A DNA stretch of 64,000 nt, from IMG/VR virus record IMGVR_UViG_3300032030_000019; one strand, 5' to 3'. This document shows positions 18,191-42,100 of this stretch, one piece after another. Source of the stretch: a virus. Its lineage: Duplodnaviria > Heunggongvirae > Uroviricota > Caudoviricetes. The position numbers were made by a program, and so were the translations under genes. The first letter of the stretch is position 1; each line of letters starts with the position of its first letter. Under the pieces are notes generated by a model, which searched no databases, was not told the origin of the DNA, and saw nothing but the letters and a program-made list of their open reading frames with translations.

Positions 18191-18203
18191 ATCGCCTCCT
18201 CGC

Positions 18204-21099: not shown

Positions 21100-22125
21100 C
21101 TATTCCACTACCTCAAGACGATGTCCACACTTTGGGCATTTGAATGCGAGAACATTATCAGGCATTTCAATTTCCGTCCCACAATCAGGACATGTCGTCT
21201 CAATACACCCTTCTTTTCCCTCATCCTTTTCCTCATCATCCTGGAACTTAAAATCAAAAAGCCCCTCAATGATTCGGAATGTTTTATCGGGGATCCTTCC
21301 GTCAGGGTTGCCCGCATTTACGATCTCTGCGAGTTCCGCTGTTGTCTTAATCCCTTCCGCCAACAGATCATGCATACACGCTGATGGTAGTTCTTTGCCT
21401 AATTCAGGGAAATAGTTGGATTGCACATCTAATATTATTTTATACCCAACAAGTTTCTGAATCAGAGCTAAGTTCGTGCCCTTACGTCCGAGGATTTTGA
21501 ATACATCCTGACGTTGGCACGTTACGTGGGCTGTACGTTCAACCATATTCACGTTGATACTACTCACGTGAATATCATGTAAGGCGTTACGTATATACTT
21601 AGATACGTCAGCATCCCACATGATAAAGTCTATTGGCTGACGTATAACCTTTTCGATGTTGTACTTTTCAGCCGTACGTATTGCCGACGTTAGCACAGGA
21701 AATGGATCCGTATACCCATTTGACGTTATGGCTACTTTGATACCACAACCTTCATATACAAACCCCTTAATCTGAATATCACCGTCAGCAATAGGCGTAC
21801 ATATGCTGGCAAGAACGTACGGCAACTGTTTTCGTCCACGTGCCAACGTATAGACAACTTGTGTTTTATTGTCTACACTATTGAACAATTCTCCGATTAT
21901 TGTTGCCCATATTTTCTTGCCAACGTTTGTGTCTACGTCGGGCTTACATTTGTGCTGACGTCGACCCTTCTTTTCTTCCTTGGGTCTATTATCTTTCGGA
22001 ATGTTATCAGCTGGCAAAAAACCTATTCGTTTTCTACCAGCTTCAACGAAAGTACACATATATTGCCCTTTCGTCTCATTCCGAATTTCTGCTTCAACCG
22101 TTCTCCCAATTAGTCGTTCGCTCAT
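21100..22125 (-). CDS. NusA-like RNA-binding protein (S1 + KH + C-terminal Zn ribbon), paralog 2
   Basis: S1-like N-terminus (GRTVEAEI...RIGFLPADNI), KH motif VFKILGRKGTNLALIQKLVGYKIILDV resembling NusA KH1, CPDCG...CPKCG zinc ribbon. Confidence 0.55.
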   Translation of the reverse strand: MSERLIGRTVEAEIRNETKGQYMCTFVEAGRKRIGFLPADNIPKDNRPKEEKKGRRQHKCKPDVDTNVGKKIWATIIGELFNSVDNKTQVVYTLARGRKQLPYVLASICTPIADGDIQIKGFVYEGCGIKVAITSNGYTDPFPVLTSAIRTAEKYNIEKVIRQPIDFIMWDADVSKYIRNALHDIHVSSINVNMVERTAHVTCQRQDVFKILGRKGTNLALIQKLVGYKIILDVQSNYFPELGKELPSACMHDLLAEGIKTTAELAEIVNAGNPDGRIPDKTFRIIEGLFDFKFQDDEEKDEGKEGCIETTCPDCGTEIEMPDNVLAFKCPKCGHRLEVVE

Positions 22126-23235: not shown

Positions 23236-23676
23236 TCAGAACTTCTTCTCGACAGCCACTACAAATCGAGAAAGGGATTCAGGGTCATCGCCCTTCAGTT
23301 CATCACCATTAATCCAATAAACAATAAGTTCATCACCTGACCCTTTAGGGAAATATCCTACATAATCAGGGAAAAGCACTACATTGTCATTTTCATCATG
23401 AAAGATGTACTTTGGGGCTATATACCGACCCTTACTTTGATCGAAACATACTGTAATAGTCTGACTCTGTGTACAATTTGCCACAACATGTCGTACTCCG
23501 TTTTTGAATTCGATCATTTCCTTAGACAGTAATACAAGCTTCTGACAATCAGGTGTCTTTAAGATAGGCGTACATAATGTCATTCCTATCTCGAGATTTT
23601 GCAACAGAAGCTTCTCCTGTCCTGGAATATTTTTTAATTTCTGATCCTTGATAAATTTTTCTGCCAATTTATGCAT
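23236..23676 (-). CDS. hypothetical protein (146 aa)
   Basis: ORF. Confidence 0.45.
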   Translation of the reverse strand: MHKLAEKFIKDQKLKNIPGQEKLLLQNLEIGMTLCTPILKTPDCQKLVLLSKEMIEFKNGVRHVVANCTQSQTITVCFDQSKGRYIAPKYIFHDENDNVVLFPDYVGYFPKGSGDELIVYWINGDELKGDDPESLSRFVVAVEKKF

Positions 23677-23739
23677 ATAGCTACTCCCTTTGAATAAATC
23701 TTCTTTGTATTGCCATATGCTCCCTCCTGTAATACTGGT

Positions 23740-25062
23740 TTATCCAGCTGGGAATACAACCTCAAACTGTTTATATGGGCATGTATCCATTATATTGTTT
23801 GTCAGAACAACAGTCTTGTCTTCAAACAACACAGGACTCCAATCAGTATAATTGTCTGTCATAATAACAATCAAATCAGGATCCATTCTATGGTCCTGTA
23901 CATATACGCTGATCGCACCCATATCTGTACCACCACCTTCTGTAGTAAGCACTTCGCTTTGACATACATCAAAGTCCTGTATTACACGACAAACAGCAGT
24001 GTCACATTCAAGGATAGTGACTTTAATCTCAAGATCATCGGAATCAGCTATTGATTTCATAATTCCATACATCTTTTCGGTTAAGCCACTCATACTCCCC
24101 GACACGTCCATTCCGATGACAAGATTTAATTCAGTGACATAATCTACACGTGCCGGATAAATTATGTTTTTAATTAAGCCTTGTAGTCTACGATTAGGTT
24201 TTCTGAATGTTCTATGCTCGAATCCATACTGCATCTGTGATGACTTCGTATGTAGCACAGCCTTGAATACATCCTCCCAATTGTAGACAATCTTTTCCAC
24301 TTTTTTCAATGCATCGCTCGGATTAGAACCCTTTCCTTGGGCTTGCGCTGCCGCGGATTCACATTCGCCTCTGAGCTTCTGCACGGCCGTCGTGGTTTTT
24401 CCATCCTTGTATCCTTTCATGCTTATATCCATACCATCAGGACCTAATGGTACACCTAATGGCACACAGTTCTTACACTGTGGATATTGGCTAGGATCGA
24501 AAGGCATAGGAATAGGATTCCCATTCGCATCTTTTGGACAATTCTTGCAATCTTTACAAGAAGATGCAGATTGAACCAAGAGTTCCAAATACTCCTCATA
24601 AGTTCGATACTCAGGGAACGGCCGACCATCCTTCAGCTTGTAATTACTTGGCATTTGTGGTGTTCTATGAGGATACTCAATATACTGATTTATCTCCATA
24701 TCTGCCGCAATATTATGCACGAGAAAATTTACATCCTGACGTGGGCTACGTTTGATACGCGTATGATGATCAAATATATAATGCATTAATTCATGCAGTA
24801 TATGACCACACAACTCTTGACTCACGACATTCTCTTTATCAGTGTTTGTCATTCCCGTACCTTGAGGCTTATACTTTTCATAAAGTTTCTTTACATATTC
24901 CCTATTAAAAGAATACTCAAGGTTCGCTGACATCGCACCTGTATCGAGTGTTTCGTTGTCTTCCGCATAGCGCATCTGTGTAATCACAGGTCCGTAAAAA
25001 GGATGATCTTTCGCAATCTTTCTCAAGGCAACCATGATCATATCGATTACTTCATCGACCAT
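23740..25062 (-). CDS. von Willebrand factor A protein with N-terminal HExxH metallopeptidase-like region (DUF2201-like), MoxR partner
   Basis: HILHELMHYIFDHH (HExxH), MIDAS motif LVIGMDVSGSMSG (DxSxS), adjacent to an AAA_5 ATPase. Confidence 0.7.
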   Translation of the reverse strand: MVDEVIDMIMVALRKIAKDHPFYGPVITQMRYAEDNETLDTGAMSANLEYSFNREYVKKLYEKYKPQGTGMTNTDKENVVSQELCGHILHELMHYIFDHHTRIKRSPRQDVNFLVHNIAADMEINQYIEYPHRTPQMPSNYKLKDGRPFPEYRTYEEYLELLVQSASSCKDCKNCPKDANGNPIPMPFDPSQYPQCKNCVPLGVPLGPDGMDISMKGYKDGKTTTAVQKLRGECESAAAQAQGKGSNPSDALKKVEKIVYNWEDVFKAVLHTKSSQMQYGFEHRTFRKPNRRLQGLIKNIIYPARVDYVTELNLVIGMDVSGSMSGLTEKMYGIMKSIADSDDLEIKVTILECDTAVCRVIQDFDVCQSEVLTTEGGGTDMGAISVYVQDHRMDPDLIVIMTDNYTDWSPVLFEDKTVVLTNNIMDTCPYKQFEVVFPAG

Positions 25063-25110
25063 GTTTACCTCCTTTTACTAACACACCATATTCTCCCATT
25101 GTCCCGTAAC

Positions 25111-26319
25111 TTACCAACCGATATAAGGCGATAATTCGTCGTATCCCTCTATCATGCTTGACAAATCAATACCTTTACCTTTCAATTCCTTCGGCTGAAT
25201 AATACCCTGTTCAATCAGGATATCAATATGACCGCGAAGGAACTTCATGATAAGAGTCGGGTATCCATGGTAATCACCGTATTTGCCATCTTTGTTATAG
25301 ATGACATTAATAACCTGAGCCCAAAGAGGTAAATACTTCTTAGGATCAAGCTGAAAGTAATATGCCATGGATGACATAATCTTGCTCACCTGGTCGTGTT
25401 CTTCTGGGTCTGGTAATTTGAAGTCTTTCTCATGACCGACGAAAGATGATAATTCGATACCGAGACCTTTGTAATCACGACAAAATGACAAGAAAAGCGG
25501 AGCCGCGGCAATACCTACTGTACCACACAATATCTCCAACAGGTAATCCGGTTCGTTCTGATCCAATGTTGCCATAATCTGAGTTGCAAGATCCCACGTT
25601 CTACCCGTTGGGAATGCTACATCGGTTTTCTTCACAATTGTCGTCGGCGTGATATTATGCATATCAGGATTCTGTTTAATGAAATCCACAGTTGCCAAAC
25701 GATATTGTAGAAGTTTCTTCCGACGTGTCTCAAGATCGTTGATGATCGGACGCTCGTAGCTCTGGAAGCCACTTACAAGTCCTTCACACCACTGCACCGG
25801 ATCAGGTTCTACAAACAAGTGTACAAGTCGATTCATCAATGCTGTACTCATCTGTTTGTTGCCTGCTGTATCCGTATAGTTTCCTGCTGCTACACGGAAT
25901 GTTGTCTCAGGGATACTAAACTCTCCATAATTACAATCCTGAATAATAGAGAGCAACGCTACCTGGATACTCATTGGACAAGTATTAATCTCATCAAAGA
26001 AGATGATACCATTTCGACACTTTTCCAACTGTTTGATGTGTAACGGAACAGAATATTTCATTTCCATTCGTCCATCTGCACCTGTATCCAAATACGGAAT
26101 ACCTCCGAGGTCCGTCGGGTCTGCCTTATTACCCGACTTGATATATGTGGGCACTTTTAAGATCTTGCCCATGAACTTTACGGTGGCTGTTTTACCACAG
26201 CCTGGCGTACTCCAAATCATTGTTGGGACACCTGCATGATACAGTCCCAACAGTAATTTAATTAAGGAGTTATGCTTTACCACTGGATTAACTCCACCGT
26301 CCACTTTCTTTTTTGCCAT
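25111..26319 (-). CDS. MoxR-like AAA+ ATPase (AAA_5 family)
   Basis: Walker A STPGCGKTAT, Walker B IIFFDEINTC, size and sensor region typical of MoxR/RavA/CbbQ-type ATPases. Confidence 0.8.
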   Translation of the reverse strand: MAKKKVDGGVNPVVKHNSLIKLLLGLYHAGVPTMIWSTPGCGKTATVKFMGKILKVPTYIKSGNKADPTDLGGIPYLDTGADGRMEMKYSVPLHIKQLEKCRNGIIFFDEINTCPMSIQVALLSIIQDCNYGEFSIPETTFRVAAGNYTDTAGNKQMSTALMNRLVHLFVEPDPVQWCEGLVSGFQSYERPIINDLETRRKKLLQYRLATVDFIKQNPDMHNITPTTIVKKTDVAFPTGRTWDLATQIMATLDQNEPDYLLEILCGTVGIAAAPLFLSFCRDYKGLGIELSSFVGHEKDFKLPDPEEHDQVSKIMSSMAYYFQLDPKKYLPLWAQVINVIYNKDGKYGDYHGYPTLIMKFLRGHIDILIEQGIIQPKELKGKGIDLSSMIEGYDELSPYIGW

Positions 26320-27866: not shown

Positions 27867-28988
27867 TTATCCTTTCAAAACCATTCTAGCTTGTTCTGCA
27901 TTTTCAAAGATGCACTCCTTGCCGTTTATGATTATCTTAACTTTATTGTTAGAAGAAGTATTGTTGACTTTTACATCTACATTTACTTCAATCTTTGGTT
28001 CTGACGTTTCCTCAGGTTTAACACGGAACTCGAACCTCTCATCGTCAAAATACTCAGGTTTTATAGTTACCATTTTAATCCCAGGACAAAGATCTCCCCA
28101 TTCATTCGTTGAGCTTCGTCGTATCTGAATAGGCTTGTCCTCCTTGAAATACGCCCATTTAACCTCATAGTTTGGGTCGTAGTAGGCGAATCTATAGTAT
28201 CCTGCGCTACCTTGAAGACAAAAGGGATACACATCGCTCTCTGAGTAGTGTGATAGTGTGCCCATCTCGCTAGGTCCTTTATGATGAATCGCCCTTTGAA
28301 GGGTTTCTATATAATCACCACAAAACACTTTTTTCCCACGCAACACCTCATCCCATTCAAAATGTACGAATTTTGAATTGTATAAGTTCACTTCTTTTCT
28401 CTTTTCGGTGTTGTTCGTTTCAGTCATATTAACCTCCTTTTTTGGTCTCCTAGTTATAGCACAATCAGAATCGACTATTCCTTCCGGTCTAATCTCTAAC
28501 TGTGCGGGTATTGAAATATTTTTCAGGTTAGAACAACCAAAGAATACATGGCTACCAATACTTGTTACGCTATCGGGTATCGTGATACGAGTTAGACTGT
28601 TGCAATACTTGAATGCTAGATCACCTATATTCGTCACACTGTCAGGTATAACCACATTCATCAAACTGTAGCAGTCTCTGAATGCATTATCGCCTATGTT
28701 CATCACGCTGTCAGGCATCGTCACACTCGTCAAGCCAGTGCAGCCATAGAATGCATAGTCACCAACAATTGTTACTCCGTCCTTTATTACGACTGACTCA
28801 ATCTGCTGACACCCGTAGAATAGGAAATCGGGAACCACGCTATTCTTGCCCGTATTTATGACTACTTCCTTGATGTCATAATACCCCACTAGACCATTAT
28901 AAGCTGGTCCACTAACACCTTCGAACGACCAGATTACTAGCCGATCATCGTCTATACAGAAATCGTTCTTTATTCTAAGAATACCCAT
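27867..28988 (-). CDS. BspA-type leucine-rich-repeat protein
   Basis: tandem units of about 23 aa (IPDSVTNIGDLAFKYCNSLTRIT / IPDSVTSIGSHVFFGCSNLKNIS); start set at MGILRIK with AGGAGG 6 nt upstream. Confidence 0.7.
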   Translation of the reverse strand: MGILRIKNDFCIDDDRLVIWSFEGVSGPAYNGLVGYYDIKEVVINTGKNSVVPDFLFYGCQQIESVVIKDGVTIVGDYAFYGCTGLTSVTMPDSVMNIGDNAFRDCYSLMNVVIPDSVTNIGDLAFKYCNSLTRITIPDSVTSIGSHVFFGCSNLKNISIPAQLEIRPEGIVDSDCAITRRPKKEVNMTETNNTEKRKEVNLYNSKFVHFEWDEVLRGKKVFCGDYIETLQRAIHHKGPSEMGTLSHYSESDVYPFCLQGSAGYYRFAYYDPNYEVKWAYFKEDKPIQIRRSSTNEWGDLCPGIKMVTIKPEYFDDERFEFRVKPEETSEPKIEVNVDVKVNNTSSNNKVKIIINGKECIFENAEQARMVLKG

Positions 28989-29030
28989 TTTACGCCTCCT
29001 ATTGCTACGCAACCGTTTCGCTCACGCTCA

Positions 29031-30672: not shown

Positions 30673-30726
30673 AAAAAAAATGGCGAAAAAAAGAATCCCA
30701 ACAAACTTCGTGAAAAGCTGTTGGGG
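30673..30726 (-). terminator. rho-independent terminator after 30745..31170
   Basis: stem CCCCAACA/TGTTGGG, then ATTCTTTTTTTCGCCATTTTTTTT. Confidence 0.55.
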
Positions 30727-30744: not shown

Positions 30745-31170
30745 TTAGAGTCTGTCGTGCAGGAGGCATGCTAATCGTAAGAACATGCACTGCTCGACGT
30801 CAGGGTGAAACTCAGGATGACGTGGATTCGGCGTTAACACATCACGTAACGCACGCTCGACGACGTCCCATGTTATCATGTCCCATGTTACGTCTTCGTC
30901 AGGTGCATCGATGAACGTCTTTACACACGTACTAAAATACGTCTGCCCGCACGTATCCATGACACGTAGGGCGAACGATACGTCTTCGTCCGTGGGTAAA
31001 TAGTCACGTAGGGCCCAAATCCAATCCTCCATTTCCTTCTTCCCCTGCTCTATTATTTTCTCTTTCCTAGAATCACTTCTCGCCAAAATCTCCCGATGAA
31101 CCTGTTCCTGAAGACGATCAAGAGAGTCGTCATCTAGGTTTTTAATATCAACCTTCAAGTCTTCGCTCAT
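30745..31170 (-). CDS. hypothetical protein (141 aa)
   Basis: ORF; terminator hairpin 20 nt downstream. Confidence 0.45.
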   Translation of the reverse strand: MSEDLKVDIKNLDDDSLDRLQEQVHREILARSDSRKEKIIEQGKKEMEDWIWALRDYLPTDEDVSFALRVMDTCGQTYFSTCVKTFIDAPDEDVTWDMITWDVVERALRDVLTPNPRHPEFHPDVEQCMFLRLACLLHDRL

Positions 31171-31396
31171 AAAGAGCCTCCTTTTGGGCTGATACCTTCT
31201 TGTTGTAGAGGTACCATACGAGAGCCTCTAGAATATTGAATAGGAGGAGTGCAGCGAAGGATATACCTAAGCCTATCCAACTCCACTTTACTGTTGCCCA
31301 TATCATTACGGCTAATTGCCACAATGCATGGAAAACATTCAAACAAATACTGAGTATCAGCGCCCAGTAAACGCTTTTGATAAATTTTAAGATCAT
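31148..31396 (-). CDS. small membrane protein (about 82 aa)
   Basis: start at MILKFIK with AAGGAGG SD; 2-3 TM helices (WALILSICLNVFHALWQLAVMIW; GLGISFAALLLFNIL). Confidence 0.4.
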   Translation of the reverse strand: MILKFIKSVYWALILSICLNVFHALWQLAVMIWATVKWSWIGLGISFAALLLFNILEALVWYLYNKKVSAQKEALYERRLEG

Positions 31397-31511
31397 TTTT
31401 AACCTCCTTTGATCTGAAAAACAATAAATAAACAGAGGAATATGTAAGAAGGAGTCAAAATACAAGTGGAGTAAATGGAGCTCACATATCCTCTGAATTT
31501 AACCACACACA

Positions 31512-31973
31512 CTACTTATTGGCCTTGAACTTCATCTCGCCTTTTATATCAAGGCTAGACTCCATTCCCCGGACTGCGTCAGCGAACTTAAGCAGCCGAT
31601 ACTCGTATCCGGAGAAATCGACGTCATTGCTGCGACCTACAAGATCCCAGTATTCGTCGTTTTCCCATTCCCATATAATCTCTGCTGCCGTCTTAATGAG
31701 ACCTCTTTTGAACGCCTCATACATTACTTCCCCGTATGGGCCTGTTATTTCATCATCAGAATCCCATACCCGAAGTTTGTACTGGTCTGGCCCGAGTCGA
31801 TACAGATCGAGCCAATCTCCAGTCATGGCTTTTGTTGCAATCCCTACACCTCCTTCCTTCATGGGCTCAAAGCCCGGTACTTTCTTCATCTCTTCTCGAA
31901 ATTCCGAAAGAGTCCCCTTCATAATCCGAACCATCTTCCCACTTTTCTTGTTAAAAATTTTGATGTCAATCAT
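31512..31973 (-). CDS. hypothetical protein (about 153 aa)
   Basis: start at MIDIKIF with AAGGAG 6 nt upstream. Confidence 0.45.
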   Translation of the reverse strand: MIDIKIFNKKSGKMVRIMKGTLSEFREEMKKVPGFEPMKEGGVGIATKAMTGDWLDLYRLGPDQYKLRVWDSDDEITGPYGEVMYEAFKRGLIKTAAEIIWEWENDEYWDLVGRSNDVDFSGYEYRLLKFADAVRGMESSLDIKGEMKFKANK

Positions 31974-32097
31974 TTGTGTCTCCTTATATATGAAATTACC
32001 AATAAAAGCGGACGTGAGGCTAACGTTGTGCAACACACATGTCGTCTCACGTCCTATTGATTATTCAAAGTTCACATTAAAGCCATTACGTTTAGCC

Positions 32098-32129
32098 AAA
32101 AAATGGCGAAAAAATGGCGAAAAAAAAAT
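32098..32129 (-). promoter_or_regulatory. tandem duplicated AAAATGGCGAAAA motif (plus-strand sense), iteron-like
   Basis: caaaaaatggcgaaaaaatggcgaaaaaaaaa; a third copy at 32336..32356. Confidence 0.4.
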
Positions 32130-32158
32130 TTCTGACGTAATCATGGTCATTACGTCAG
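32119..32158 (-). terminator. strong rho-independent terminator at the end of the structured non-coding island
   Basis: 10-bp stem CTGACGTAAT/ATTACGTCAG, 7-nt loop, followed by AAATTTTTTTTT. Confidence 0.7.
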
Positions 32159-32335
32159 ATAAGAAAAAGAAAATGCCAACGTCAATGCGTAATACAAAAA
32201 TATTTGGGGAGGTTGTACTACTATGAGCTGACGTAACGTTTAGGGTAATACGTACACAACATACGTAGGGGACGTTACGCCAACATGCGCATTAACGTTG
32301 GCATATATTTTTATCTTCTCGCCATCCTTACGTAG

Positions 32336-32356
32336 TGTAAAAAATGGCGAAAATAT
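32336..32356 (-). promoter_or_regulatory. third copy of the AAAATGGCGAAAA motif
   Basis: gtaaaaaatggcgaaaatat inside the structured non-coding island. Confidence 0.35.
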
Positions 32357-32505
32357 ATCCTCTGCTTACGCTTCGGATACACGTCTCGGGTTATGTCCTT
32401 GACGTCAGAATCCAGGTGGGTTACACGTACAACTTCCCCTGGACGGAAGTCATACGTGATGGGCCTTGCACCCATACGTCCTCATGCCCACGAATGGCTG
32501 ACGTA

Positions 32506-32841
32506 TTAGTACGTGAATCGTGTCACGCCTAAGATACGTCCACCCTCGTCTCGTACAGCAGTCTTACCTGTGTCAGGACATATAACGTCCTCACGTTCAG
32601 CAAGACCATCTTTAACGAGTCGGCTTACGACGTACATTACACCTTCTTCTGGTGTTGGAACGCCTTCAGCCTCACCAAAGACTGTACGAGCGAGAGTTGT
32701 GCCATTTACTTCGCCAACGATTTCCTCGCTTACGGCACGTCTTGCGACGTTACCTGATGTGGGGATCTCGTATGCAATCTCACCATCCTTGTAGATTGTG
32801 AGGGCATGCGGAGTCAAATTCACAAAACGGATTTCGCTCAT
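32506..32841 (-). CDS. hypothetical protein (111 aa) in a GC-richer island flanked by long non-coding regions
   Basis: ORF with ACGT-rich codon usage; flanked by about 350 nt of non-coding DNA on each side. Confidence 0.45.
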   Translation of the reverse strand: MSEIRFVNLTPHALTIYKDGEIAYEIPTSGNVARRAVSEEIVGEVNGTTLARTVFGEAEGVPTPEEGVMYVVSRLVKDGLAEREDVICPDTGKTAVRDEGGRILGVTRFTY

Positions 32842-33144
32842 TTTGCTTATCCGTGAGCCTTTTTACCGTTGCTCAGGGTCTAGTGTAGGATCAACCTCAA
32901 TCTCTGGTCGGATAACCATCAATGTATTAGTATTAGCTCAACAAGCTTTCACCTACTCCCGTCTGCTTTTGATTTGTTCAGGATGTACAGCTTCAACCTG
33001 AGGACCCGTCTTCGTTGACTTTTTTCAGATCAACGCCCTGAAATGGGTGGTCCTTTAAAATAGTGCCCCTACATAATAATACACGTGCGTACACACGTAA
33101 CGAGACCGCGGGCAAACAATCTCTTGTATTATTATTCATATATG

Positions 33145-33182
33145 AGTGTTTTAAGTAAATTTTTGTGCTTACTCAAAACACT
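33145..33182 (-). promoter_or_regulatory. near-perfect 14-bp palindrome/hairpin just 3' of 33190..33948
   Basis: AGTGTTTTAAGTAA-atttttgtgc-TTACTCAAAACACT; no U-tract follows, so it may be an operator or RNA structure rather than a terminator. Confidence 0.4.
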
Positions 33183-33189
33183 TATGATT

Positions 33190-33948
33190 TTACATGTACT
33201 TGTCATCCTCCTCTTCTACAGGAGGATCCTCGTGACAAGCCTCGGGGGTTCTGTCGATGATGGCCTGATTGGCCTCACGACAGGCTTCGACAGTACTATA
33301 ATAGGTACCGTCTAGGGCGAAATGTGGGCCGTCGTCATCCCACTTACTGTACCCGTTCATGAATACATCCTGTCTGAATGTATTCGCGACCTGCCTCTCG
33401 TATGGGGAGTTTTCTTTCCCCTCGAATATCCCCGACACTCCTTCAGAGGAAATCTCAGGCTCTTCAAGGGAGTCGTTGATTATCTGATACACTCGCCCTT
33501 CTTCAGGGGTGTATCCTTCGAGATCAGCGGGATGATATAACTTCCATCCCATTGCATCTACCAAGATCTGAATCAAATCAGGAAGAAACATTTTTATCCC
33601 TTCATTAAATTTTCCTGCTGAAGAGATGTGCAGCGAATCCCTGAACTGCCATCCAAATGGCGTCCAGGTAAAGATTTTGTGATCTACGCACCCGGACATC
33701 CCGTGACGAACCGACAATTTAATGGCATCATGTCTTTTATAAGACTTGATACAGTTAAAGATTACATCCCGAATTTCAGGGATGGCGATCACGTAATCCA
33801 GATCTACCTGGTCCAAAGCAACGCCTTTCAGCGTTGCAATGGTAATAGTCGGAGCGTCGCTTTCCGACCATGTTTTCGATAATGCGACACCAATCAGTGT
33901 CTTTTTAACTATTATATCATTATTTTTAACATTAACCTGAATTTTCAT
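33190..33948 (-). CDS. hypothetical protein (252 aa)
   Basis: ORF; strong palindrome right after the stop. Confidence 0.45.
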   Translation of the reverse strand: MKIQVNVKNNDIIVKKTLIGVALSKTWSESDAPTITIATLKGVALDQVDLDYVIAIPEIRDVIFNCIKSYKRHDAIKLSVRHGMSGCVDHKIFTWTPFGWQFRDSLHISSAGKFNEGIKMFLPDLIQILVDAMGWKLYHPADLEGYTPEEGRVYQIINDSLEEPEISSEGVSGIFEGKENSPYERQVANTFRQDVFMNGYSKWDDDGPHFALDGTYYSTVEACREANQAIIDRTPEACHEDPPVEEEDDKYM

Positions 33949-34104
33949 TTTTGTGTCCTTTCCTTATCTTTTTACAACTTTGGGCTGTTGTTTCGATTTT
34001 TTTGGTTCGTAATTACCGACATCCTTGTCAGATAACCACTTAAGCCCTTGCAACCTATAGGGCATTTTTCAGGATCAAGATAATAAGTCTTCTTCATACG
34101 AATA

Positions 34105-35340
34105 TCAACCTCTTGTCCCTTCAGCAAATCTATTTTTTTTAATATGCACTCTTTTCGGAAATGCATTTTCCCCGATTAATACTCCACTGGGTATAGTTAC
34201 ACTCGTCAGTTGAGTACAATCCTCGAATGCATAATCACCAATGCTCATTACACTGTCAGGTATTGTTACACTCGTCAGTCTGCTACAACACAAGAATGCA
34301 CCACTGCCTATGTCTGTCACGCTGTTACCTATTGTTACACTCGTCAGACCATCACAGCCACTGAATGCATAATCACCTATGCTTGTCACGCTGTCAGGTA
34401 TTGTTACACTCGTCAGACCATCACAGCCACTGAATGCATAATCACCTATGCTTGTCACGCTGTCAGGTATTGTTATGCTCGTCAGACCGATACAGCCACT
34501 GAATGCATAATCACCTATGCTTGTCACATTACTCGGTATCGTCACACTCGTCAGGCCGCTGCAGTTATAGAATGCATGGCTGCCTATGCTCGTCACACTG
34601 TCTCCTATCGTCACACTCGTCAGACCATCACAGCCACTGAATGCATAATCACCTATGCTTGTCACACTGTCAGGTATTGTTATACTCGTCAGACTACTAC
34701 AACCGTTGAATGCATGGTTGCTTATACTCGTCACGCTGTCAGGAATAATCAAGTCTGTAACAAGCTTTCCATCCACCTCAAGTTGGTAGGTGAAATTAAA
34801 AGGCCAAGGAGCCCAGTGAATGTGACACCATTGCTCGATAGTCCCCTTATATTTTATTAGGAGGGACTGATTTAACAATGCATTCTCCCCAATATAGCTA
34901 ACAGTATCTGGGATCACGACACTGTCATTTTTCATATATGAGATCAATCCAAAGGGTAGATACACAATCCCTTTCATGAAGACCTTGTATCTTTTTTCCT
35001 CAAACTTGGGGCCTTCATCCTTGTCCCAACCGAGGCTATTTACTTCCTTGACCTCTTGAAGATACTCATCCAGGATCTGGGTATCATTTAAAACATAATC
35101 CTTCCACTCTATTACATTGGAGTATGGAAGTTTGTATCTGTTTTTATAGAGGAGTCCCCAATTATACTCCTCAAGGTTTTGATGTTTTGCCCTGTTCATT
35201 ACAGAGAGAGCAGTGGTTCTGTTAATTGTCTCCATCTTTTGGATCTTGGCTTTTTCTTTGTCAAACTCCTTCATACCCGGCGTCCTCCTTAACAAACACT
35301 TACGTCCGACATAACGCAAGAGAGGTTTTACGGAACCCAT
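34105..35340 (-). CDS. BspA-type leucine-rich-repeat protein with near-identical tandem repeats
   Basis: at least 9 consecutive units of 23 aa (IPDSVTSIGDYAFSGCDGLTSVT) encoded by near-identical 69-bp repeats. Confidence 0.7.
   Translation of the reverse strand: MGSVKPLLRYVGRKCLLRRTPGMKEFDKEKAKIQKMETINRTTALSVMNRAKHQNLEEYNWGLLYKNRYKLPYSNVIEWKDYVLNDTQILDEYLQEVKEVNSLGWDKDEGPKFEEKRYKVFMKGIVYLPFGLISYMKNDSVVIPDTVSYIGENALLNQSLLIKYKGTIEQWCHIHWAPWPFNFTYQLEVDGKLVTDLIIPDSVTSISNHAFNGCSSLTSITIPDSVTSIGDYAFSGCDGLTSVTIGDSVTSIGSHAFYNCSGLTSVTIPSNVTSIGDYAFSGCIGLTSITIPDSVTSIGDYAFSGCDGLTSVTIPDSVTSIGDYAFSGCDGLTSVTIGNSVTDIGSGAFLCCSRLTSVTIPDSVMSIGDYAFEDCTQLTSVTIPSGVLIGENAFPKRVHIKKNRFAEGTRG
34190..34770 (-). repeat. 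69-bp near-identical tandem repeats (coding; LRR units)
   Basis: e.g. ccatcacagccactgaatgcataatcacctatgcttgtcac... recurs almost verbatim at a 69-nt period; this also explains the spurious plus-strand ORF 34210..34860. Confidence 0.8.
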
Positions 35341-35369
35341 ACGTACTCACCTCTACAAGTACGCACGGG

Positions 35370-36059
35370 TTAGAGACGAATCACATGATAGGGTCGTATC
35401 AAGTCCTTAAACTCTTCCGACTCTATCATTTCAATAAACCCCTCACTCATCTCCTCTATGAGAGGTTTACCCGTTCGTCCGATAATCTCCGCAGTAGCCG
35501 AACGGTCTTCACCACTGCGGATAGCCTCACGCACACGCTCTCGGCATAATTCAGAGTCGCGTGAGGCTGTTTCGAGAATTACGAAGATTGGTTCGTAGCC
35601 ATAGGCCAAAACCATCTCGAGCTCATCCCGAATACCCTGAAGCCAAAGGTGAGTTTCGCTGAGGTAGATGCCTCGCTCACCGAAAGACATCTCCCTACGG
35701 AGGAAGTGATGACACAGATCAAACACCTCCGCGTTCCTTGTTTGATCTGAGACTGAACCAGTACAAATCCGTCGAATCGCGTCTGGTTCAATCATTACAG
35801 AATTCACGAAGCGGGTCTCATGGAGGTAATTCTTCCCTGCCCCGCTAATACCAACAGGGAAGACAACTATGCGAGTTGCTGGGACAAATGCCGTATCCCA
35901 TCCGTAGGAACGGAGAGGGTTCTCTGTATGTCCCATGTAGTGAATCACCCACGTAAGTCCACTACTTAACTCACTGAGCTTGTATCGAATTTGGGTTACC
36001 TCAAACCCATTTCGACGCTGTTTTTGAATCCACAGCTGGATATCTTTCGGGTGTTTCAT
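35370..36059 (-). CDS. P-loop kinase, polynucleotide-kinase-like (AAA_33 family)
   Basis: VVFPVGISGAGKNYL (Walker A) followed by SVMIEPDAIRR resembles the T4 Pnk kinase N-terminus (TIGCPGSGKST...NRDDYRQ). Confidence 0.5.
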   Translation of the reverse strand: MKHPKDIQLWIQKQRRNGFEVTQIRYKLSELSSGLTWVIHYMGHTENPLRSYGWDTAFVPATRIVVFPVGISGAGKNYLHETRFVNSVMIEPDAIRRICTGSVSDQTRNAEVFDLCHHFLRREMSFGERGIYLSETHLWLQGIRDELEMVLAYGYEPIFVILETASRDSELCRERVREAIRSGEDRSATAEIIGRTGKPLIEEMSEGFIEMIESEEFKDLIRPYHVIRL

Positions 36060-36165
36060 GATACCTCCTTCATGCCCAAAAATTCAGTATATACAAAGGG
36101 GCAATCAATCTCTTTATATATACTTCAATAATGAGAATTTTAAGTATATTTTTGATCCATGGTAT

Positions 36166-36200
36166 TTTTGACGAAAAAAAAGTACCCCTCAAAAGAGGGA
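36166..36200 (-). terminator. rho-independent terminator after 36215..36424
   Basis: stem CCCTC-TTTT-GAGGG, then TACTTTTTTTTTCGTCA. Confidence 0.55.
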
Positions 36201-36214
36201 TAACTTTCTAAACA

Positions 36215-36424
36215 TTACGCAGACCAAAGTGCGAAATCGTTGTCCATTCCACATTGCCCACGTTCGAAATACGTACACTCACCTGATTGCCCACGTACGC
36301 ACGTAGAACAATCACGCGACGTATTCCTGTCTGCCTCATCGTATGCAAACTCGTCCTCATCGTTAAAGTCGACATTAGAAAAGTTTACGCCATGACTATC
36401 CAAATCACGATTATCAATATACAT
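36215..36424 (-). CDS. small Cys-rich protein (69 aa)
   Basis: CSTCVRGQSGECTYFERGQCG. Confidence 0.35.
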   Translation of the reverse strand: MYIDNRDLDSHGVNFSNVDFNDEDEFAYDEADRNTSRDCSTCVRGQSGECTYFERGQCGMDNDFALWSA

Positions 36425-36433
36425 ATGTACACC

Positions 36434-37153
36434 TCACAATAACGTATCTGACTCTATACGAACGTAAGTCAGATTGTCAGTATTAATTACACCGAAGTAC
36501 CCCAAATCAGGTTGACTAGGATAATGTTGATAAGGTGGGGATACAGAATAGTCTTTACCAATTACCTCACCATTATTATTCTTATGTGGGAACTCTACCG
36601 GCGAATGTATATCCCCAAAAATACCCAACGTATAATCCCCAATAGGTTCTTGACATAAGCCCAAAGAGACGTGACCAAGTGCAACATCACAGTCCGTAAA
36701 TTCAATTTTATCCAAAGGTTGCCAGTTCTTGAAATGAAACGTACGTCCCCCAAGTTCGAGATGTTCATCATGCATGTACGTAAAGTTTGGTCCGTTAAAC
36801 ATGCTTATGAACGTATCATTTACATCGATGGTCTCAACTTTCGCGTCCATGTCATGTTGCCCAAGTATATAGAACGTATTAAACTGCGTTGTTAATATTT
36901 CTATAAAACGTCGGCATGTATGTACGACGCGAGGTGAGGACCGAGGTTTATTGATTATGTCACCCAAAAGAAACAAATTGCTTATATTCTCACGTTTACC
37001 ATACTTAACTAAACCTTGAGCAAACGTCAGGCATTGATTGAGACGATAGTCTTCGATATTGCCTGTAAGATCAAGCTTATCATAGTCCTCACGTGAGGGA
37101 TTAAAGTAACGGTAGTCATCAATATGAACATCCGCAATACAACATATTTTCAC
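36434..37153 (-). CDS. calcineurin-like metallophosphoesterase
   Basis: CIADVHID (DxH), LLGDIIN (GD), ILGQHD (GNHD-like), further His residues downstream. Confidence 0.75.
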   Translation of the reverse strand: MKICCIADVHIDDYRYFNPSREDYDKLDLTGNIEDYRLNQCLTFAQGLVKYGKRENISNLFLLGDIINKPRSSPRVVHTCRRFIEILTTQFNTFYILGQHDMDAKVETIDVNDTFISMFNGPNFTYMHDEHLELGGRTFHFKNWQPLDKIEFTDCDVALGHVSLGLCQEPIGDYTLGIFGDIHSPVEFPHKNNNGEVIGKDYSVSPPYQHYPSQPDLGYFGVINTDNLTYVRIESDTLL

Positions 37154-38481
37154 GATGTGCTCCTGTCATAATACGTAGAGTAAGTTCTTAATATTTTCTC
37201 AGCTGATAATTCGGTAAAGTACTCGCAATGATTAACCGATTGAAATACACGTACCTTAGATGGATCCACAAGATGTACACGCATGAATATCGCAAGATCA
37301 CGTGCAAACACTTCCATATCCTCATTATCTTTGACGATTATATGGAATTCGTAATCCTTGAAGTAGAGATGAAAGTACCCCCAGTGATTAGTTCCATCCC
37401 CACCTTGTCTCAGGAAATCGAAGAAGTATCGGTCTAAGCGACCTTCCATTTTTATATACAGTGGCTCAGTATTCCCCTCGAGCTCATACCTGCATATTCC
37501 ATCAAAGACATACCCTAGTTCCGATTTCATATAGTTCGATACACCACCAGGCCCGTAATATAGCATTGGATTAAACCAAGCAGCAAAGACATCCTTAGAG
37601 AGAATGCGTTGGTAGTCCTGTTGAAGACAATAAGTCATCTTACCACCACCAAAGTCAGATGAGAATACGAAGCGAACCTTTTGATTCTTTGCCTTGTTTT
37701 GCAACTCGTATAGATTCACGGACGGATCAAACTCAATGGGCTCGAGTGCGTTGTTTTTAAAGCGAATTGTGCGTGTAGCGATCCAGGCGCGTTCATGCTG
37801 TTGCTCCTCAGGGGATTTTTCACGCTCCTCACTTAAGAGAATTATGGTTATATCTCCGTAGCAATCACAAATGTAGCAACGGCAAACATGGACGAACCAG
37901 GAGTTCAGCTGTAGTTTATTCGCGAGTTCCATCATATACACGAATTCATTCGACCCGTTTTTTTTGGCTTCGCACCCCTGTAGATAACAAGCATGCACGT
38001 GATTCTCAAATTCCTTCTCATTGAATGTGCACATATTGAAGTGTTCATTAAGATGCCGATATTGTCTTTCATCAGCCCCTGAATGATCAAACTTGATGAC
38101 TATTGGGGAATGTTCCTCATCAGTAATATAATGGTCAATGAAATCACGAAAGAATATCATATCCGTAAAGACTGGTATGGCATATCCAATATCACGTAAA
38201 GTCTTTTCAAGTATTGCCTTAATATTCGGACGATAATCCAATGTAATATCAAAGATTGCAATGATATTCATATCATTTTGAGGATACAGTTTGTGTAAAC
38301 GTAAAAACGTAATCATATCTTTCGTTACTGTTGCCAAGACTACACGTTTAGATTTGAGATAATCAATAGGCTTCCATAGCTCAGGGATATCCATTGTACA
38401 CCAATTAGTACAATTTGACTCCATAGGGTTCCAGGGAACAGGTGTTTGAGAGGACATTTCCTGTGGCTGTAATTCATTCAT
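37150..38481 (-). CDS. hypothetical protein (about 443 aa)
   Basis: start moved to MNELQPQ with GAGGAG 7 nt upstream and right after the upstream stop; central Cys cluster HVCRCYICDCYGD. Confidence 0.45.
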   Translation of the reverse strand: MNELQPQEMSSQTPVPWNPMESNCTNWCTMDIPELWKPIDYLKSKRVVLATVTKDMITFLRLHKLYPQNDMNIIAIFDITLDYRPNIKAILEKTLRDIGYAIPVFTDMIFFRDFIDHYITDEEHSPIVIKFDHSGADERQYRHLNEHFNMCTFNEKEFENHVHACYLQGCEAKKNGSNEFVYMMELANKLQLNSWFVHVCRCYICDCYGDITIILLSEEREKSPEEQQHERAWIATRTIRFKNNALEPIEFDPSVNLYELQNKAKNQKVRFVFSSDFGGGKMTYCLQQDYQRILSKDVFAAWFNPMLYYGPGGVSNYMKSELGYVFDGICRYELEGNTEPLYIKMEGRLDRYFFDFLRQGGDGTNHWGYFHLYFKDYEFHIIVKDNEDMEVFARDLAIFMRVHLVDPSKVRVFQSVNHCEYFTELSAEKILRTYSTYYDRSTS

Positions 38482-39184
38482 AAGATTGCTCCTCTTCATC
38501 CATTGGGTCACTTTTCCACTTAAACGCATACGGTATCTGTTGTTCAGAAAAACCAAGACTTTGTTTTTCTTTCTGATTTTTCTTGATAAGCTGTAGAATA
38601 TCAGTCGTAGTGAGCCCATATGGAGATAAGTATTGATTGCGAACTATGTAATACCCTGATTTAGGGTTCCATTTAAAATACTTCTTCAGATATTCCAATT
38701 CAATGTAAGCTCTGAAATCCTTATCCCCATAATCATCCTGTGTCAATAAAGCAAGAATACCAAGAATAGTAATATCATGTCTCTGGATCCGATATTTTTC
38801 TTGTTTCTTCTTTCGCTTATTCCCCTCGTTTTTCACAGATAACCCCGGATATTCAAGTAAACCTCGCATGCGCCCTGGTTTCGAAAACACGAGAACACCA
38901 TTGATCAAAATAAAGAACCTTCCGTAATCAGCACTAAAATCTAGACAATTCAGAGATGGATCTCCTTCGATAATGACCATTTGTTTCTGAAGATTATGGA
39001 TGTTTTCGAACGACAAGTCATATGGTCTGTATTCAACTCTTTTTTGACTAAGATCACTAAAATTAAATCGGCTAACATACGGCTCGTCATACGACATTGT
39101 GTGCCTGTCATTTGGATCATACAATACTCGCTTATCAAGAGTCGGATCCATCATATGATCCAGTTTTTCCAACAAATTCATCAT
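38474..39184 (-). CDS. hypothetical protein (236 aa)
   Basis: ORF. Confidence 0.45.
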   Translation of the reverse strand: MMNLLEKLDHMMDPTLDKRVLYDPNDRHTMSYDEPYVSRFNFSDLSQKRVEYRPYDLSFENIHNLQKQMVIIEGDPSLNCLDFSADYGRFFILINGVLVFSKPGRMRGLLEYPGLSVKNEGNKRKKKQEKYRIQRHDITILGILALLTQDDYGDKDFRAYIELEYLKKYFKWNPKSGYYIVRNQYLSPYGLTTTDILQLIKKNQKEKQSLGFSEQQIPYAFKWKSDPMDEEEQSYE

Positions 39185-39194
39185 TTCTTACTCC

Positions 39195-42100
39195 CTACCC
39201 TGCAAGTAGCTTATTAGCAATATCTACAGGATATATTTTTGATGGATTATCACGTATATGAAGACTCTGTTTATTTTGAGCCTTCTCCTCATCATCCTCC
39301 ATTCCTGGTATTAAATGTTCATCCCATCGCTTTACCTTGTCAAAATACGATGGAATACCCAATGGCTTTGTTGCAGTTTCAATACCACGTACGTGACGAT
39401 TTACCTTAAATTTTACAGTACGTATATACGGACTCAAAAACTCAGGATAATCACAAATATAATGTGGTTTCGCACGTGGCCCACCTGTTGGGTTCTTAAT
39501 GAACTCGCCGATAGGATCCACTAACCCTTTATCAGGATTATCCGTTATCTCATCCTCAAGTATTGTAATATCAGGCTCAGTCAAATATGTAAAGACATAA
39601 TCCACAGAACCTTTTGGACCTGAGATCTTACCTTCCATTGTCTCAACATCAAGAGAATACGACATATGCTCACATGAATTGTACAAAATATCCAAGTCAT
39701 ATTTAAAGTCGATGCCATACTTCTCGAAAATGTACTTGCGGAAGTAGTTGCGATAACATATGTCGGCTTCAAACAAGTCACGTATAGGCAAGTTATTCTG
39801 ATTTGAGTCATGTATAACGCTTTCAGCACTAACGTCAATATCCAACGCACGTATGTTCATAATAGACAATTCAAAGCCCTCGTTCGCAACAACAGACGCA
39901 TTTCCCTGATTACCATAATTAACGGCCGTCGTAAATGCGTCGTCTTTGTCTCCATGTAAACGATCCCCTAAGAACGTTTCAATTTCACCCGTTTGCTGTA
40001 AATAATGAAGTTTGTGCTGACGTAAACGGTCAACTTCCCTCCACGTACCAAACATAGCACGCTTCATCTCTGTCACACGTTCCGTAGTTACACCCGCACG
40101 TGCAGCTAACCCTGCATCTCCTTGCCCATATATCGATGAAATCATACATGTTTTGGCAATCCCTCGATATTTAGCTTTAAAGTCGGGGTCGTTAACGTGA
40201 TCAGGCCACGTAATCTTCGCAAGCTCCATATACGCATCTTTGCCTGAGTTGTATATATCCATAAATACAGGATCATGGGATATATAACAAATTGAACGTG
40301 GCTCCATTTGTGATACGTCGAAATACGTTTTTATACGTCCTGGCTCTACGATAAGGCACTTCATTGTGTCGCTGTGTGGCAAGAACGTATGGTAGCCTGA
40401 CGTACATCGCTTTGTTGCCAACGTATTCATCGCGAACGTTGGCACATACGTATCTTTCGGACCATTATCAGAAAAATAGCCTGAATGTACACCTGGATAA
40501 AAGATCTTATGTTTACCGTTAAGTATGTTTTTCAGGTACGTATTCAGCTCTTTACTTGCTACTGACGCAAAATCCGTAAGAAAGCCAAGTTTTGCAAGAA
40601 GTTGGTACGTATCATCAGGAAGTTCAGTCGTCATATTGTTACGAGGTTCATCAAATAAATACTGAAAATATTCCTCAGCAAAAGTAACCCCGTCGCTAAT
40701 AAACTCCTTTTTCCATACGGCTGGCTCACGTTTCATAATAGACACACGTCCACCTTCTTCGCGTGAGTAGTAACTTCCTATTTCTACTTCAGGCATAAAC
40801 AAGTCTAATGCATCTGACTGGTTCAGTAAGTCTATTTTACTTTCAAAGACGGTTAGTAGTTCACGTATCTTTTCAGGTGTACGTTCGACATTGTTCGCCT
40901 TGATGTATTGCCACGTAGAGTACATAACAAGATAGTTATCCCTATATTCGTGTTTCAACATAGCACCGAAGATCTCAGGAAATTGATCGTTCGAGCTGTA
41001 CTTACATACTTTCTCAAAATACAGCTTATCTCGTCCTTCATAGATTGTACCAACGAACGGGTCCTCTGTTACACGTATATGTTCATCAAATCTTGTAATT
41101 TCTTCAGCACACGCACGTAAACGCAAATAACGATATGCGGATATTTCAGGATGTGTAATGCCGTCAAACTCCTCTGCAACAGCTTTAGGCACAATAGTAG
41201 ATAGATCGAACTGTAAATAGTAATCATCATCTAAATCCCGTAAATCATAAACCTGAGCAAGAGTGGATACCTGTTTCTTGGGTTCAAATATGGTCACCTC
41301 ATTATGCACTTCCTCCAATAACCATCTCAAGTTATTTTCAGGTATGTCTTCCGCAACACCATGAGTCGTTACACCCAAATCTATACTCACTTTCTTAAAA
41401 CGTGAACATAACGTATCATATAACGTAACCGTCACATCTTTCTTGCCCCTCTTCGTTTGCGCCTCAATTTTCGTCCCGTACTTTTTATACCATGCACGTG
41501 CAACATCGATTGCGATCCATGCGTCTTCCATACGTATATACTTTTGTAAAGGCGACCACATATACGTTAAACCTGCGTTCTTAATATACTCTTTTAACGC
41601 AATATAAACGTCAGCCACTATAAATCGATTAAACGACTCCACAAGTTCAGACAAATGTATCATAGTCTGTATAAACTTACCGATAGGTTCAGCTGTCTTT
41701 TTCTTACGTGTATACGAATCAAGCCCCTGTGACATAGCTTCTTCGTCTAAAACAGAAGAAACCTCATCACTTACGTCATATCCGAACATGTCATTCAAGA
41801 ACGTACTCGGAATATTCCAGTCAGGCTTTTTCGGACACAGTCTTCCTAACAGTATCTTTGTGATCTTCATTGGATCAGCTTGGCATACCTCAGGATATTC
41901 GGCTATAATACGTAAAGTCTGTTTAGGTATCTCGATTGTACACCACTTATTCTGCTTCATATACGAACGTAGGAAGATCTTATTCAATAAAATCTCGTAG
42001 TTACTACATATGTTTTGGCAATATTTCGCATACTTTGTGGCTTTCTCAACATCTACCTTGATCCCTGACATTTTTAATTCCATGCCCAGATATTTATTGA

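Follow-up and report, generated by a model that had tools for sequence, protein, structure and literature searches.

Is a stretch of phage DNA that is crowded with hairpins and short repeats a place where replication starts, or is it a set of signals that act once the DNA has been transcribed? This question is raised by positions 31974 to 33189 of IMGVR_UViG_3300032030_000019, a 64,000-nt stretch from a large uncultured phage, to which we refer as the window. Here a gene for a protein of 111 residues lies between two stretches without a supported open reading frame (ORF), 31974-32505 (532 nt) and 32842-33189 (348 nt). A preliminary description of this DNA had recognized the ORF-poor flanks and offered a replication origin or packaging site, or else a long structured leader or 3′ RNA, to account for them. 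Its observation is confirmed by our analysis and its interpretation is partly supported: the island, that is the gene together with its flanks, probably consists of RNA-level signals (leader, terminators and 3′ RNA) around an accessory anti-defence gene. Every real-looking ORF of at least 130 residues in the window lies on the minus strand, so the island was analyzed as a minus-strand unit, and the locus is read on this strand throughout.

The context of the locus is set by its central gene, which is a Crn4-type ring nuclease and had been missed in the preliminary description. The Crn4 family was first described in December 2025 (Chi et al., Nat Commun; PMC12830947; PDB 9r7b, 9sma, 9qs9). Its members cleave the cyclic oligoadenylates cA3, cA4 and cA6 to linear products as homodimers, share T13, H15 and R112 as conserved binding and catalytic residues, and adopt a fold described as unrelated to other known structures (PMC12830947). 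Pfam and NCBIfam gave no match for the 111-residue protein, which in PHROGs matches two families of unknown function. A single-query sequence search of the PDB retrieved Crn4a (E 3.6e-7) and Crn4b (E 1.2e-4) over residues 5-106, with Crn4 H15A also matched, and a family profile built from 30 relatives reached Crn4b (9r7b) with E 3e-17 and Crn4a with E 9.5e-14 across positions 2-108. Identity to the solved Crn4 proteins is about 25-27%. T10 and H12 sit in the motif NLTPH, and R97, within AVRDEGGR, aligns with the VRD of Crn4b; in an alignment of 30 family members H12, R34, R83 and R97 never vary, and T10 hardly does. The AlphaFold2 model of the protein has a mean pLDDT of 96.9. When it was compared with the PDB by Foldseek, all seven matches with E <= 0.001 were Crn4 chains and the next one followed at E 2.7; the best, 9r7b, superimposes with a TM score of 0.77 and a root-mean-square deviation of 2.6 A. 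By sequence and predicted fold, the gene product is a Crn4b-type cyclic-oligoadenylate ring nuclease.

What would such an enzyme do for the phage? It is expected to degrade the cyclic oligoadenylates of type III CRISPR systems and possibly also those of the cyclic oligonucleotide-based antiphage signalling system (CBASS). Since the Crn4b profile, the catalytic residues and the fold all match, the gene is a candidate anti-CRISPR or anti-signalling gene, and phage and plasmid orthologues of Crn4b have been proposed as anti-CRISPRs (PMC12830947). It resembles Crn4b in its full-length match, its size, the Thr/His/Arg triad and the same predicted unique fold; it differs in its setting, a large uncultured phage without a CRISPR locus, and in its long structured untranslated flanks. 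A comparison can also be drawn with AcrIII-1 (DUF1874), a viral enzyme that degrades cyclic oligoadenylates to counter type III CRISPR, which is the role expected here, although its fold is unrelated to that of Crn4. In vitro, the substrate range of Crn4 (cA3, cA4, cA6) is broader than that of AcrIII-1 (PMC12830947). No Aca-type helix-turn-helix regulator was detected next to the Crn4 gene in the window phage or in the related phage introduced below. The family is large, with 5270 representative clusters in metagenomes, and its 22 records in cultured phages are all annotated as hypothetical. What had been singled out as a GC-rich small gene is one more, unremarkable member of an anti-defence family defined only recently; its GC content of 0.49 exceeds the window mean of 0.40, but its neighbours are similar.

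How far do the flanks travel with the gene? A metagenome scan yielded 80 Crn4 loci, among which the flanking elements occur in just two lineages, that of the window and a second phage lineage (contigs L001-L004 and L012-L014), hereafter the relative. Its Crn4 gene is 88% identical to that of the window in amino acids and 78% in nucleotides. Scans of IMG/VR seeded with the Crn4 protein or with that of the neighbouring 252-residue gene found no relatives. An apparent variant, contig L078, was discarded as 100% identical to the window, and long flanks as a general trait of phage Crn4 loci were rejected, the crude gaps there having a median of about 100 nt.

The structure of the island's flanks is beyond chance and exceptional for the window. 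The minus-strand RNA of 32120-32510 has a minimum free energy (MFE) of -144.5 kcal/mol, with a z-score of -8.5 against dinucleotide shuffles and of -7.7 against shuffles that preserve ACGT. In a GC-corrected scan of 1273 segments of 391 nt, the seven strongest-folding ones all lie within 31951-32691. The MFE fold of the 3′ region contains 126 pairs and arranges them, in order, as domain A, hairpin B, hairpin C, domain D and a terminator (Table 1). This last hairpin, already noted as a strong terminator, has its 11-bp stem and loop at 32159..32131 and has the sequence features of an intrinsic (Rho-independent) terminator. The hairpin at 32011-32055, behind it, can be read from the sequence as described before, and so can the nested hairpins with ACGT cores. 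In the window as a whole ACGT occurs 626 times where 222 are expected from base composition and accounts for 24% of all CpG; the ACGT cores of the hairpins reflect this patchy, window-wide excess. Repeats and palindromes had been described as denser here than elsewhere in the window; the repeat and ACGT are found outside the island as well.

Domain D is a part of the 3′ flank that is conserved in the relative. It is built on a long-range inverted repeat of 16 nt (32173-32188 / 32289-32304) that had been seen before and that lengthens to 25 nt at 84% complementarity. As RNA it gives a closing helix of 16 bp (32304..32289 with 32188..32173) with a 7-bp extension, which encloses two hairpins; the loop of one is CCUCCCCAA (32212..32204). 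A U-rich tract comes next. On its own the domain has a z-score of -8.6 in the window, where MFE and centroid structures coincide, and of -5.9 in the relative. By BLAST, the extra 300 nt or so of the island have no counterpart in the relative. A covariance model made from domain D does have a match in the relative: it lies on the gene strand of L001, at 6970-7116, scores 26 bits (E about 1e-4 to 5e-4) and recurs in three more contigs of that lineage. There the domain begins 7 nt past the stop codon of a 153-residue gene and is followed by T7. The closing helix has all 16 of its pairs in either phage. Nine of them, the outer ones, are the same, four in a row farther in have changed on both sides, from AU, AU, UA, GC to CG, GC, CG, AU, and a U.G wobble occupies the same position in both; controls with slid helices are just 25-37% paired. 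In both versions, too, CCUCCCC(C)AA is found in hairpin loops and the helix is followed by a U-tract. This conservation and covariation is suggestive, and most likely domain D serves as a 3′-end RNA or as a terminator of elaborate build.

A second conserved element lies in the 5′ flank. The pairs GTTGA..TCAAC and GGACC..GGTCC, at 33002-33053, had been listed as repeats; they belong to a Y-shaped element of 52 nt, in which an outer stem GGACC/GGUCC surrounds the hairpins CCC-AUUUCA-GGG and CGUUGA..UCAACG. Its core is a block of 39 nt that is 92% identical in the relative, about 170-200 nt upstream of the gene, within flanks that cannot be aligned. The same Y fold is obtained for both phages. 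Hairpin 2 contains one compensatory pair, G-C to A-U, and the outer stem, as read from the folds, is replaced in the relative by GCGCCAA/UUGGUGC. The element occurs once in the window, and a pattern scan for it gave no matches. The leader that follows folds no better than expected (z -0.6 in the window, -0.9 in the relative). Further upstream, a reported 14-bp palindrome at 33145 is indeed an inverted repeat, but its arms are 17 nt long and separated by a 10-nt spacer (33142-33158 / 33169-33185).

Two elements are thus kept in both phages: the 52-nt 5′ element and the domain D of about 155 nt are conserved, and the sequence around them is unalignable. With the exceptional folding, they support the proposal of a long structured leader or 3′ RNA. 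The RNA candidate belongs to no known class in the collections searched, since Rfam returned no match at gathering score for the 64 kb, chance-level hits only for the island at E up to 10 (24 bits at most, and in every case well short of gathering) and nothing meaningful for the relative's island, and ARAGORN found no tRNA or tmRNA.

What, then, are the repeats that looked like iterons? The three copies of AAAATGGCGAAAA are real, two of them in tandem within 32098-32125 and one at 32339-32353, and on the coding strand the repeat reads T-run/CG[C/T]CAT/T-run. We searched both strands of the 64 kb for [CT]G[CT]CAT followed by at least 5 T. Six sites were found on the minus strand (32349, 32119, 32108, 30685, 29050 and 18222) and none on the plus strand, with about 0.3 expected per strand. 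All six are intergenic and mark gene boundaries over 14 kb; at 32119, 30685 and 18222 the motif comes right after a terminator-like hairpin with its T-run, and at 29050 it lies 16 nt after such a hairpin. A fourth exact copy of the repeat at 30675-30692 and variants at 29053 and 18226 show that it is not specific to the island, in which a self-BLAST limits the dispersed repeat to this boundary motif of 15-18 nt. The relative has one copy in the corresponding position, behind its Crn4 terminator, and another 17 nt before an ATG. The copies are transcription-unit boundary signals and not origin iterons. The motif may act as a promoter for another polymerase or sigma factor, as part of the terminator or as a processing site. 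A reading as sigma-70 -35/-10 elements was rejected on inspection, as the spacings do not fit, and a consensus promoter scan of 31000-34500 showed no minus-strand promoter at any motif copy.

Outside the island, the motif copies at 18226-18185, 29053-28990 and 30692-30655 (minus strand) lie 0-16 nt past terminator-like hairpins and 25-55 nt ahead of start codons. Downstream of both the 18226 and the 29053 copy stands AGCACCGA, a hint at regulatory cassettes that are repeated. Another ORF-free and well-folded intergenic stretch (18185-18400, minus strand; -67.4 kcal/mol, z -4.1) likewise ends in a terminator hairpin and the boundary motif.

The closest known analogue of such boundaries is the PeSL (promoter-early stem-loop) terminator/promoter cassettes, which lie on either side of accessory genes and bring about the shuffling of genes in the hyperplastic regions of T4-like phages (PMC2839356, PMC4122927). 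Both combine a stem-loop terminator with a conserved motif repeated at the boundaries of small accessory genes, both occur where close relatives vary by whole-gene insertions and deletions, and the juxtaposed, 'empty' boundaries of the window resemble the products of exchange between such signals. The window motif differs in its sequence, T-run/CG[C/T]CAT/T-run instead of sigma-70 -35/-10, and has six copies in 64 kb.

The gene content around Crn4 fits this comparison. While the polymerase and several other genes are syntenic between the window and the relative, the Crn4 neighbourhood differs: the window has additional genes for 489, 411 (leucine-rich repeats, LRR) and 252 residues, and the relative has others for 52, 153, 57 and 80 residues. 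DNA-level alignment between the two phages is limited to the Crn4 gene and the 39-nt block upstream of it. By its gene content the neighbourhood is a hypervariable accessory region. After Crn4 the relative has, in this order, a terminator, the motif, the 153-residue gene and domain D; the window has domains A-B, the motif, domain D, the terminator and then the motif twice. From this comparison the window looks like the relative minus the gene between motif and D, plus two abutting motifs, and we infer a history of cassette loss or exchange. The relative has an ORF-free island of its own (L001 6974-7521, 548 nt), which holds the homologue of domain D, a 28-nt long-range inverted repeat (7204-7231 / 7284-7311), three copies of CCGAAATTAG (two direct, one inverted) and two of AACGTTCAGACGTA.

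Taken together, the island would be one unit transcribed from the minus strand and working at the RNA level, an accessory, moron-like anti-defence cassette within a hypervariable region. From 5′ to 3′ it would comprise the Y element, a leader of about 160 nt, the Crn4b-type gene and a chain of stable hairpins of about 375 nt ending in the intrinsic terminator. The boundary motif would mark off one gene cassette from the next, as a rule right behind a terminator hairpin. The copy that in the window is almost directly followed by D could then be an 'empty' cassette, and together with the second terminator and the two abutting motifs it would make several boundary signals stacked without ORFs, which would account for the density of hairpins and repeats in the island. 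Morons are accessory phage genes with their own promoter and terminator (PMC2839356). Like them, the locus has a single accessory gene that is bounded by a 5′ element and an intrinsic terminator of its own; the genes beside it are unrelated, and in the relative the unit recurs with other neighbours. Its untranslated parts are far longer and more structured than those that morons usually have, and no promoter was found for it. The flanks vary known kinds of phage regulatory architecture. New here are a phage-borne Crn4b-type gene from a large uncultured phage, in a family whose viral members are proposed to act against CRISPR or CBASS, two conserved RNA elements outside Rfam (the 52-nt Y element and domain D of about 155 nt) with a narrow known distribution, and a defined boundary motif. 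The gene lies in a self-contained unit with RNA structures conserved on its 5′ and 3′ sides, within a region where close relatives swap genes, and this setting hints at the ways in which phages insulate, express and move anti-defence genes.

Table 1. Features of the Crn4 locus and of its surroundings in the window, listed in the direction of the minus strand, with two replication genes at the end.
Feature	Position	Strand	Remarks
252-residue gene	stop at 33190	minus	followed by a 348-nt gap
AT-rich hairpin, 17-nt arms, 10-nt loop	33142..33185	minus	directly 3′ of the stop of the 252-residue gene; MFE fold
48-residue ORF	33139..32993	minus	overlies the conserved 5′ element
11-bp stem AUAAUAAUACA/UGUAUUAUUAU around two small hairpins	33073..33135	minus	inverted-repeat search, MFE fold
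Terminator-like hairpin, then UUAUUAU	33099..33080	minus	inside the 33073..33135 stem
Y-shaped 5′ element, 52 nt	33002..33053	minus	conserved; about 160 nt before the Crn4 start codon
Leader between Y element and start codon	32842..33001	minus	not conserved
Crn4b-type ring nuclease gene, 111 residues	32841..32506	minus	sequence, profile, predicted fold; followed by a 532-nt gap
Domain A, three-way junction	32404..32502	minus	just past the stop codon; MFE fold
Small hairpin of domain A, AUGGGU..GCCCAU	32475..32459	minus	present in the relative too
54-residue ORF	32475..32311	minus	
14-bp hairpin of domain A	32458..32424	minus	
Hairpin B, 8 bp	32353..32382	minus	runs into U-run/CGCCAU; fold
Hairpin C, 15 bp	32317..32353	minus	motif copy 3 (TTTTCGCCATTTTTT, 32353..32339) pairs with an inverted partial copy (GGATGGCGAGA)
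Domain D, about 155 nt	32162..32316	minus	conserved in the related phage
Predicted intrinsic terminator, 11-bp stem UCUGACGUAAU/AUUACGUCAGA, 7-nt loop, then AA + U9	32122..32159	minus	
Tandem boundary motifs T9-CGCCAT-T6-CGCCAT-T6	32098..32128	minus	directly after the terminator
9-bp hairpin GGACGUGAG/CUCACGUCC, then GCUUUUAUU	32011..32055	minus	leader of the next gene
153-residue gene	ATG at 31973	minus	
62-residue ORF		plus	in the flanks
DNA polymerase	39195-43319		
DnaB-like helicase	48961-50316		

Several points weigh against this picture of RNA-level signals around an anti-defence gene. Transcription from the minus strand, the transcript ends, termination and any regulatory role are all inferred. 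That the minus strand folds at lower energy results from G/T skew throughout the genome (mean difference -16.7 kcal/mol) and is thus no proof of selection at the RNA level, which is why strand asymmetry of folding was abandoned as evidence. The extra 300 nt or so are missing from the 3′ end of Crn4 in the relative, so the enzyme does not need them. Domain D is known from two lineages only across the searched collections, so its covariation amounts to a single pairwise comparison, and the shuffle control is weak (39/500); an inverted repeat with parallel changes in its arms would also fit a protein-binding site at the DNA level or terminal inverted repeats. The boundary motif is unlike a sigma-70 promoter, and one copy in the relative is just 17 nt from a start codon. 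Finally, an origin that lacks the classical hallmarks may be compatible with the sequence alone.

Could domain D be a gene of its own? Instead of a terminator or 3′ end, about 210 nt (~32337..32125) could make an independent small RNA (sRNA) that acts in trans, with the CGCCAT copy as its promoter and the CCUCCCC loop pairing with G-rich Shine-Dalgarno (SD) sequences. C-rich loops of Firmicute sRNAs such as RsaE/RoxS pair with Shine-Dalgarno sequences in this way. Domain D is similar in that it exposes a CCUCCCC loop and ends in a U-tract, and the SD sequences of the phage are of the GGAGG type, including strong ones in window genes such as AAGGAGG. A motif copy (32353..32339) lies directly upstream, the U-tract and a canonical terminator follow downstream, the fold is well defined (MFE and centroid agree at z -8.6) and CCUCCCC(C)AA is kept in the loops of both phages. 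The loop region GUACAACCUCCCC is moreover complementary at 12 of 13 positions to domain A at 32439..32427. In the relative, however, domain D begins 7 nt past a stop codon, with no motif copy upstream; directly 3′ of a gene, it resembles a 3′ untranslated region or a terminator, not a separate gene. It also lacks any Rfam or sequence relationship to RsaE/RoxS. The consensus scan found no sigma-70-like promoter before D, the boundary motif is at best a putative promoter, and by a rough estimate 13-nt complementarity of this kind arises by chance in about 5% of regions of this size. We regard an independent sRNA as unlikely, if still worth entertaining. As an observation in its own right, the match between GGGGAAGUUGUAC (32439-32427, in the 14-bp hairpin of domain A) and GUACAACCUCCCC (32218-32206, including the C-rich loop) on the minus strand could be an alternative long-range pairing or chance.

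A bolder combination is more doubtful still: D as the first recognized member of a new class of phage RNA of about 150-210 nt, with a helix that closes its 5′ and 3′ ends, an exposed anti-SD loop CCUCCCC and a U-tail, acting in trans and travelling with anti-defence cassettes, and the motif as a new promoter or processing signal. If true, D might silence host or phage mRNAs or aid the ring nuclease during takeover.

The same inverted repeat can also be viewed as DNA. In that case domain D would be a small non-autonomous mobile element, similar to a miniature inverted-repeat transposable element (MITE) and bounded by terminal inverted repeats of 16 bp, or else two half-sites for a protein, TGCCAACGT and ACGTTGGCA, and the parallel changes in the arms would track the specificity of a binding protein rather than RNA pairing. 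The outer 9 bp of the arms are identical between the phages while the interior differs, the neighbouring genes are different in the two genomes, and TGCCAACGT is enriched in the window, with 9 exact sites and 39 with at most one mismatch where 11.5 are expected. A second inverted pair of TGCCAACGT, 11 nt apart, lies in the polymerase gene at 40416-40444. As in a MITE, there are terminal inverted repeats; unlike one, the element has no dispersed copies, and neither sequence has a target-site duplication at the ends of the domain. By the covariance model each genome region has a single copy, no gene for a transposase lies close by, and two versions of an arm-pair pattern are absent from IMG/VR and from 185,579 species genomes. 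Domain D has, in both phages, the same orientation to transcription, the U-tract after the 3′ arm and the conserved loop motif, and the sole mismatch between its arms is in both a U.G wobble on the coding strand. A mobile or protein-bound DNA element is on these grounds improbable. A search with a loop-plus-arm pattern gave a single chance match, which was rejected by the covariance model.

The origin or packaging site with which this text began fares worse. Here copies of AAAATGGCGAAAA would be iterons bound by an initiator, and the A/T-runs would form a DNA-unwinding element. The window does contain replication genes (a DnaB-like helicase and a DNA polymerase), GC content dips locally to 0.33 at 32050-32200, and the direct and inverted repeats are real; iteron origins such as lambda ori or plasmid oriV similarly combine short direct repeats next to an A/T-rich stretch with inverted repeats. 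But the island has three short copies only (13-15 nt), which are part of a coding-strand motif of six boundaries, mostly after terminators. Compared with iteron origins, such repeats are too few, too short, strand-specific and spread over gene boundaries, with neither an adjoining initiator nor an inflection of the skew. The cumulative GC skew is monotonic through the locus. There is no cluster of DnaA boxes and no DnaA-box match within 31507-36525, neither an initiator nor a terminase adjoins the island, and the flanking genes have no Rep-like matches. AT-richer stretches exist elsewhere, for example at 13501-14500, and just two short sub-elements align or can be detected in the relative. We hold an origin or packaging site to be very improbable; the island is no convincing replication origin, and a false lead is removed.

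Least credible of all is that the flanks are really coding, through small genes such as the ORFs of 54 and 48 residues, a decayed gene, or genes with reassigned stop codons. Both ORFs exist, and the gene caller predicted the 48-residue one on the source contig; some phage Crn4 orthologues have an N-terminal extension, and the PHROG matches span just the C-terminal part of longer profiles. Yet TAA, TAG and TGA are mixed in all six frames, so that no single reassignment opens a long frame and stop-codon reassignment was rejected; the 54-residue ORF has no homologue in the protein collection, is itself not in it and ends after 9 codons in the relative; the 48-residue ORF covers the conserved RNA element, where the relative has neither an ORF nor a gene call; tblastx of the gaps against the relative's extra genes gave no protein-level similarity, and with it a decayed copy of such a gene was rejected; and a stop in frame 8 codons before the ATG of Crn4 rules out an N-terminal extension. 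Even if all minus-strand ORFs of at least 45 residues are taken as coding, 32037-32310 remains the longest ORF-free stretch of the window.

In its wider setting, the window codes for a DnaB-like helicase, a DNA polymerase of 1374 residues and an NrdD-like reductase. No cultured phage is similar to it at the DNA level, none has a helicase more than 32% identical to that of the window, and the identical sequence (100%) is also found on a 133-kb Joint Genome Institute (JGI) contig and several shorter contigs. The gene that follows the island has 153 residues and the SD sequence AAGGAG. Two genes encode LRR_5 (BspA-like) leucine-rich repeats (34105-35340 and 27867-29012); the former carries a 69-nt tandem repeat in 8 copies (34190-34743) and, like the adjoining 252-residue gene, is not present in the related phage. 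The 489-residue gene (37150-38619) has no family match, and its two flanking genes adjoin each other in the relative; it is a lineage-specific insertion within an otherwise syntenic block. In the NrdD-like protein (54621-58199, 1192 residues), profiles of anaerobic ribonucleotide reductases match residues ~886-1170 only, and the sole match of its N-terminal part is a weak one to a PHROG of unknown function at 626-791.

A last set of observations concerns the excess of ACGT. Its density is bimodal by gene, with about 1.5-2.8 sites per 100 nt in many genes and 0-0.3 in others, among them 13397-14347, 23236-26319, both LRR genes, 33190-36059 and NrdD. The three codon frames do not differ in this density, nor do coding and intergenic DNA, which makes the excess a property of the DNA and not of codon usage. 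The sites are gathered in patches, which are 100-350 nt long (in the island, 620 nt) and have 3-6 sites per 100 nt, for example at 21484-21723, 30797-31006, 32012-32630 and 40296-40448. The relative is enriched in ACGT as well, with few sites in common. The excess could result from selection on ACGT as a site of binding or modification, or from a mosaic in which native DNA is mixed with recent acquisitions. TGCCAACGT, the arm end of domain D, recurs at 14753, 21511, 21841, 21918 and 63610, and its pair within the polymerase coding sequence (40416-40444) makes a perfect 9-bp hairpin with an 11-nt loop. Other enriched 8- and 9-mers, GCTGACGTA, CCATACGTA and GCCCACGT, are also extensions of ACGT.

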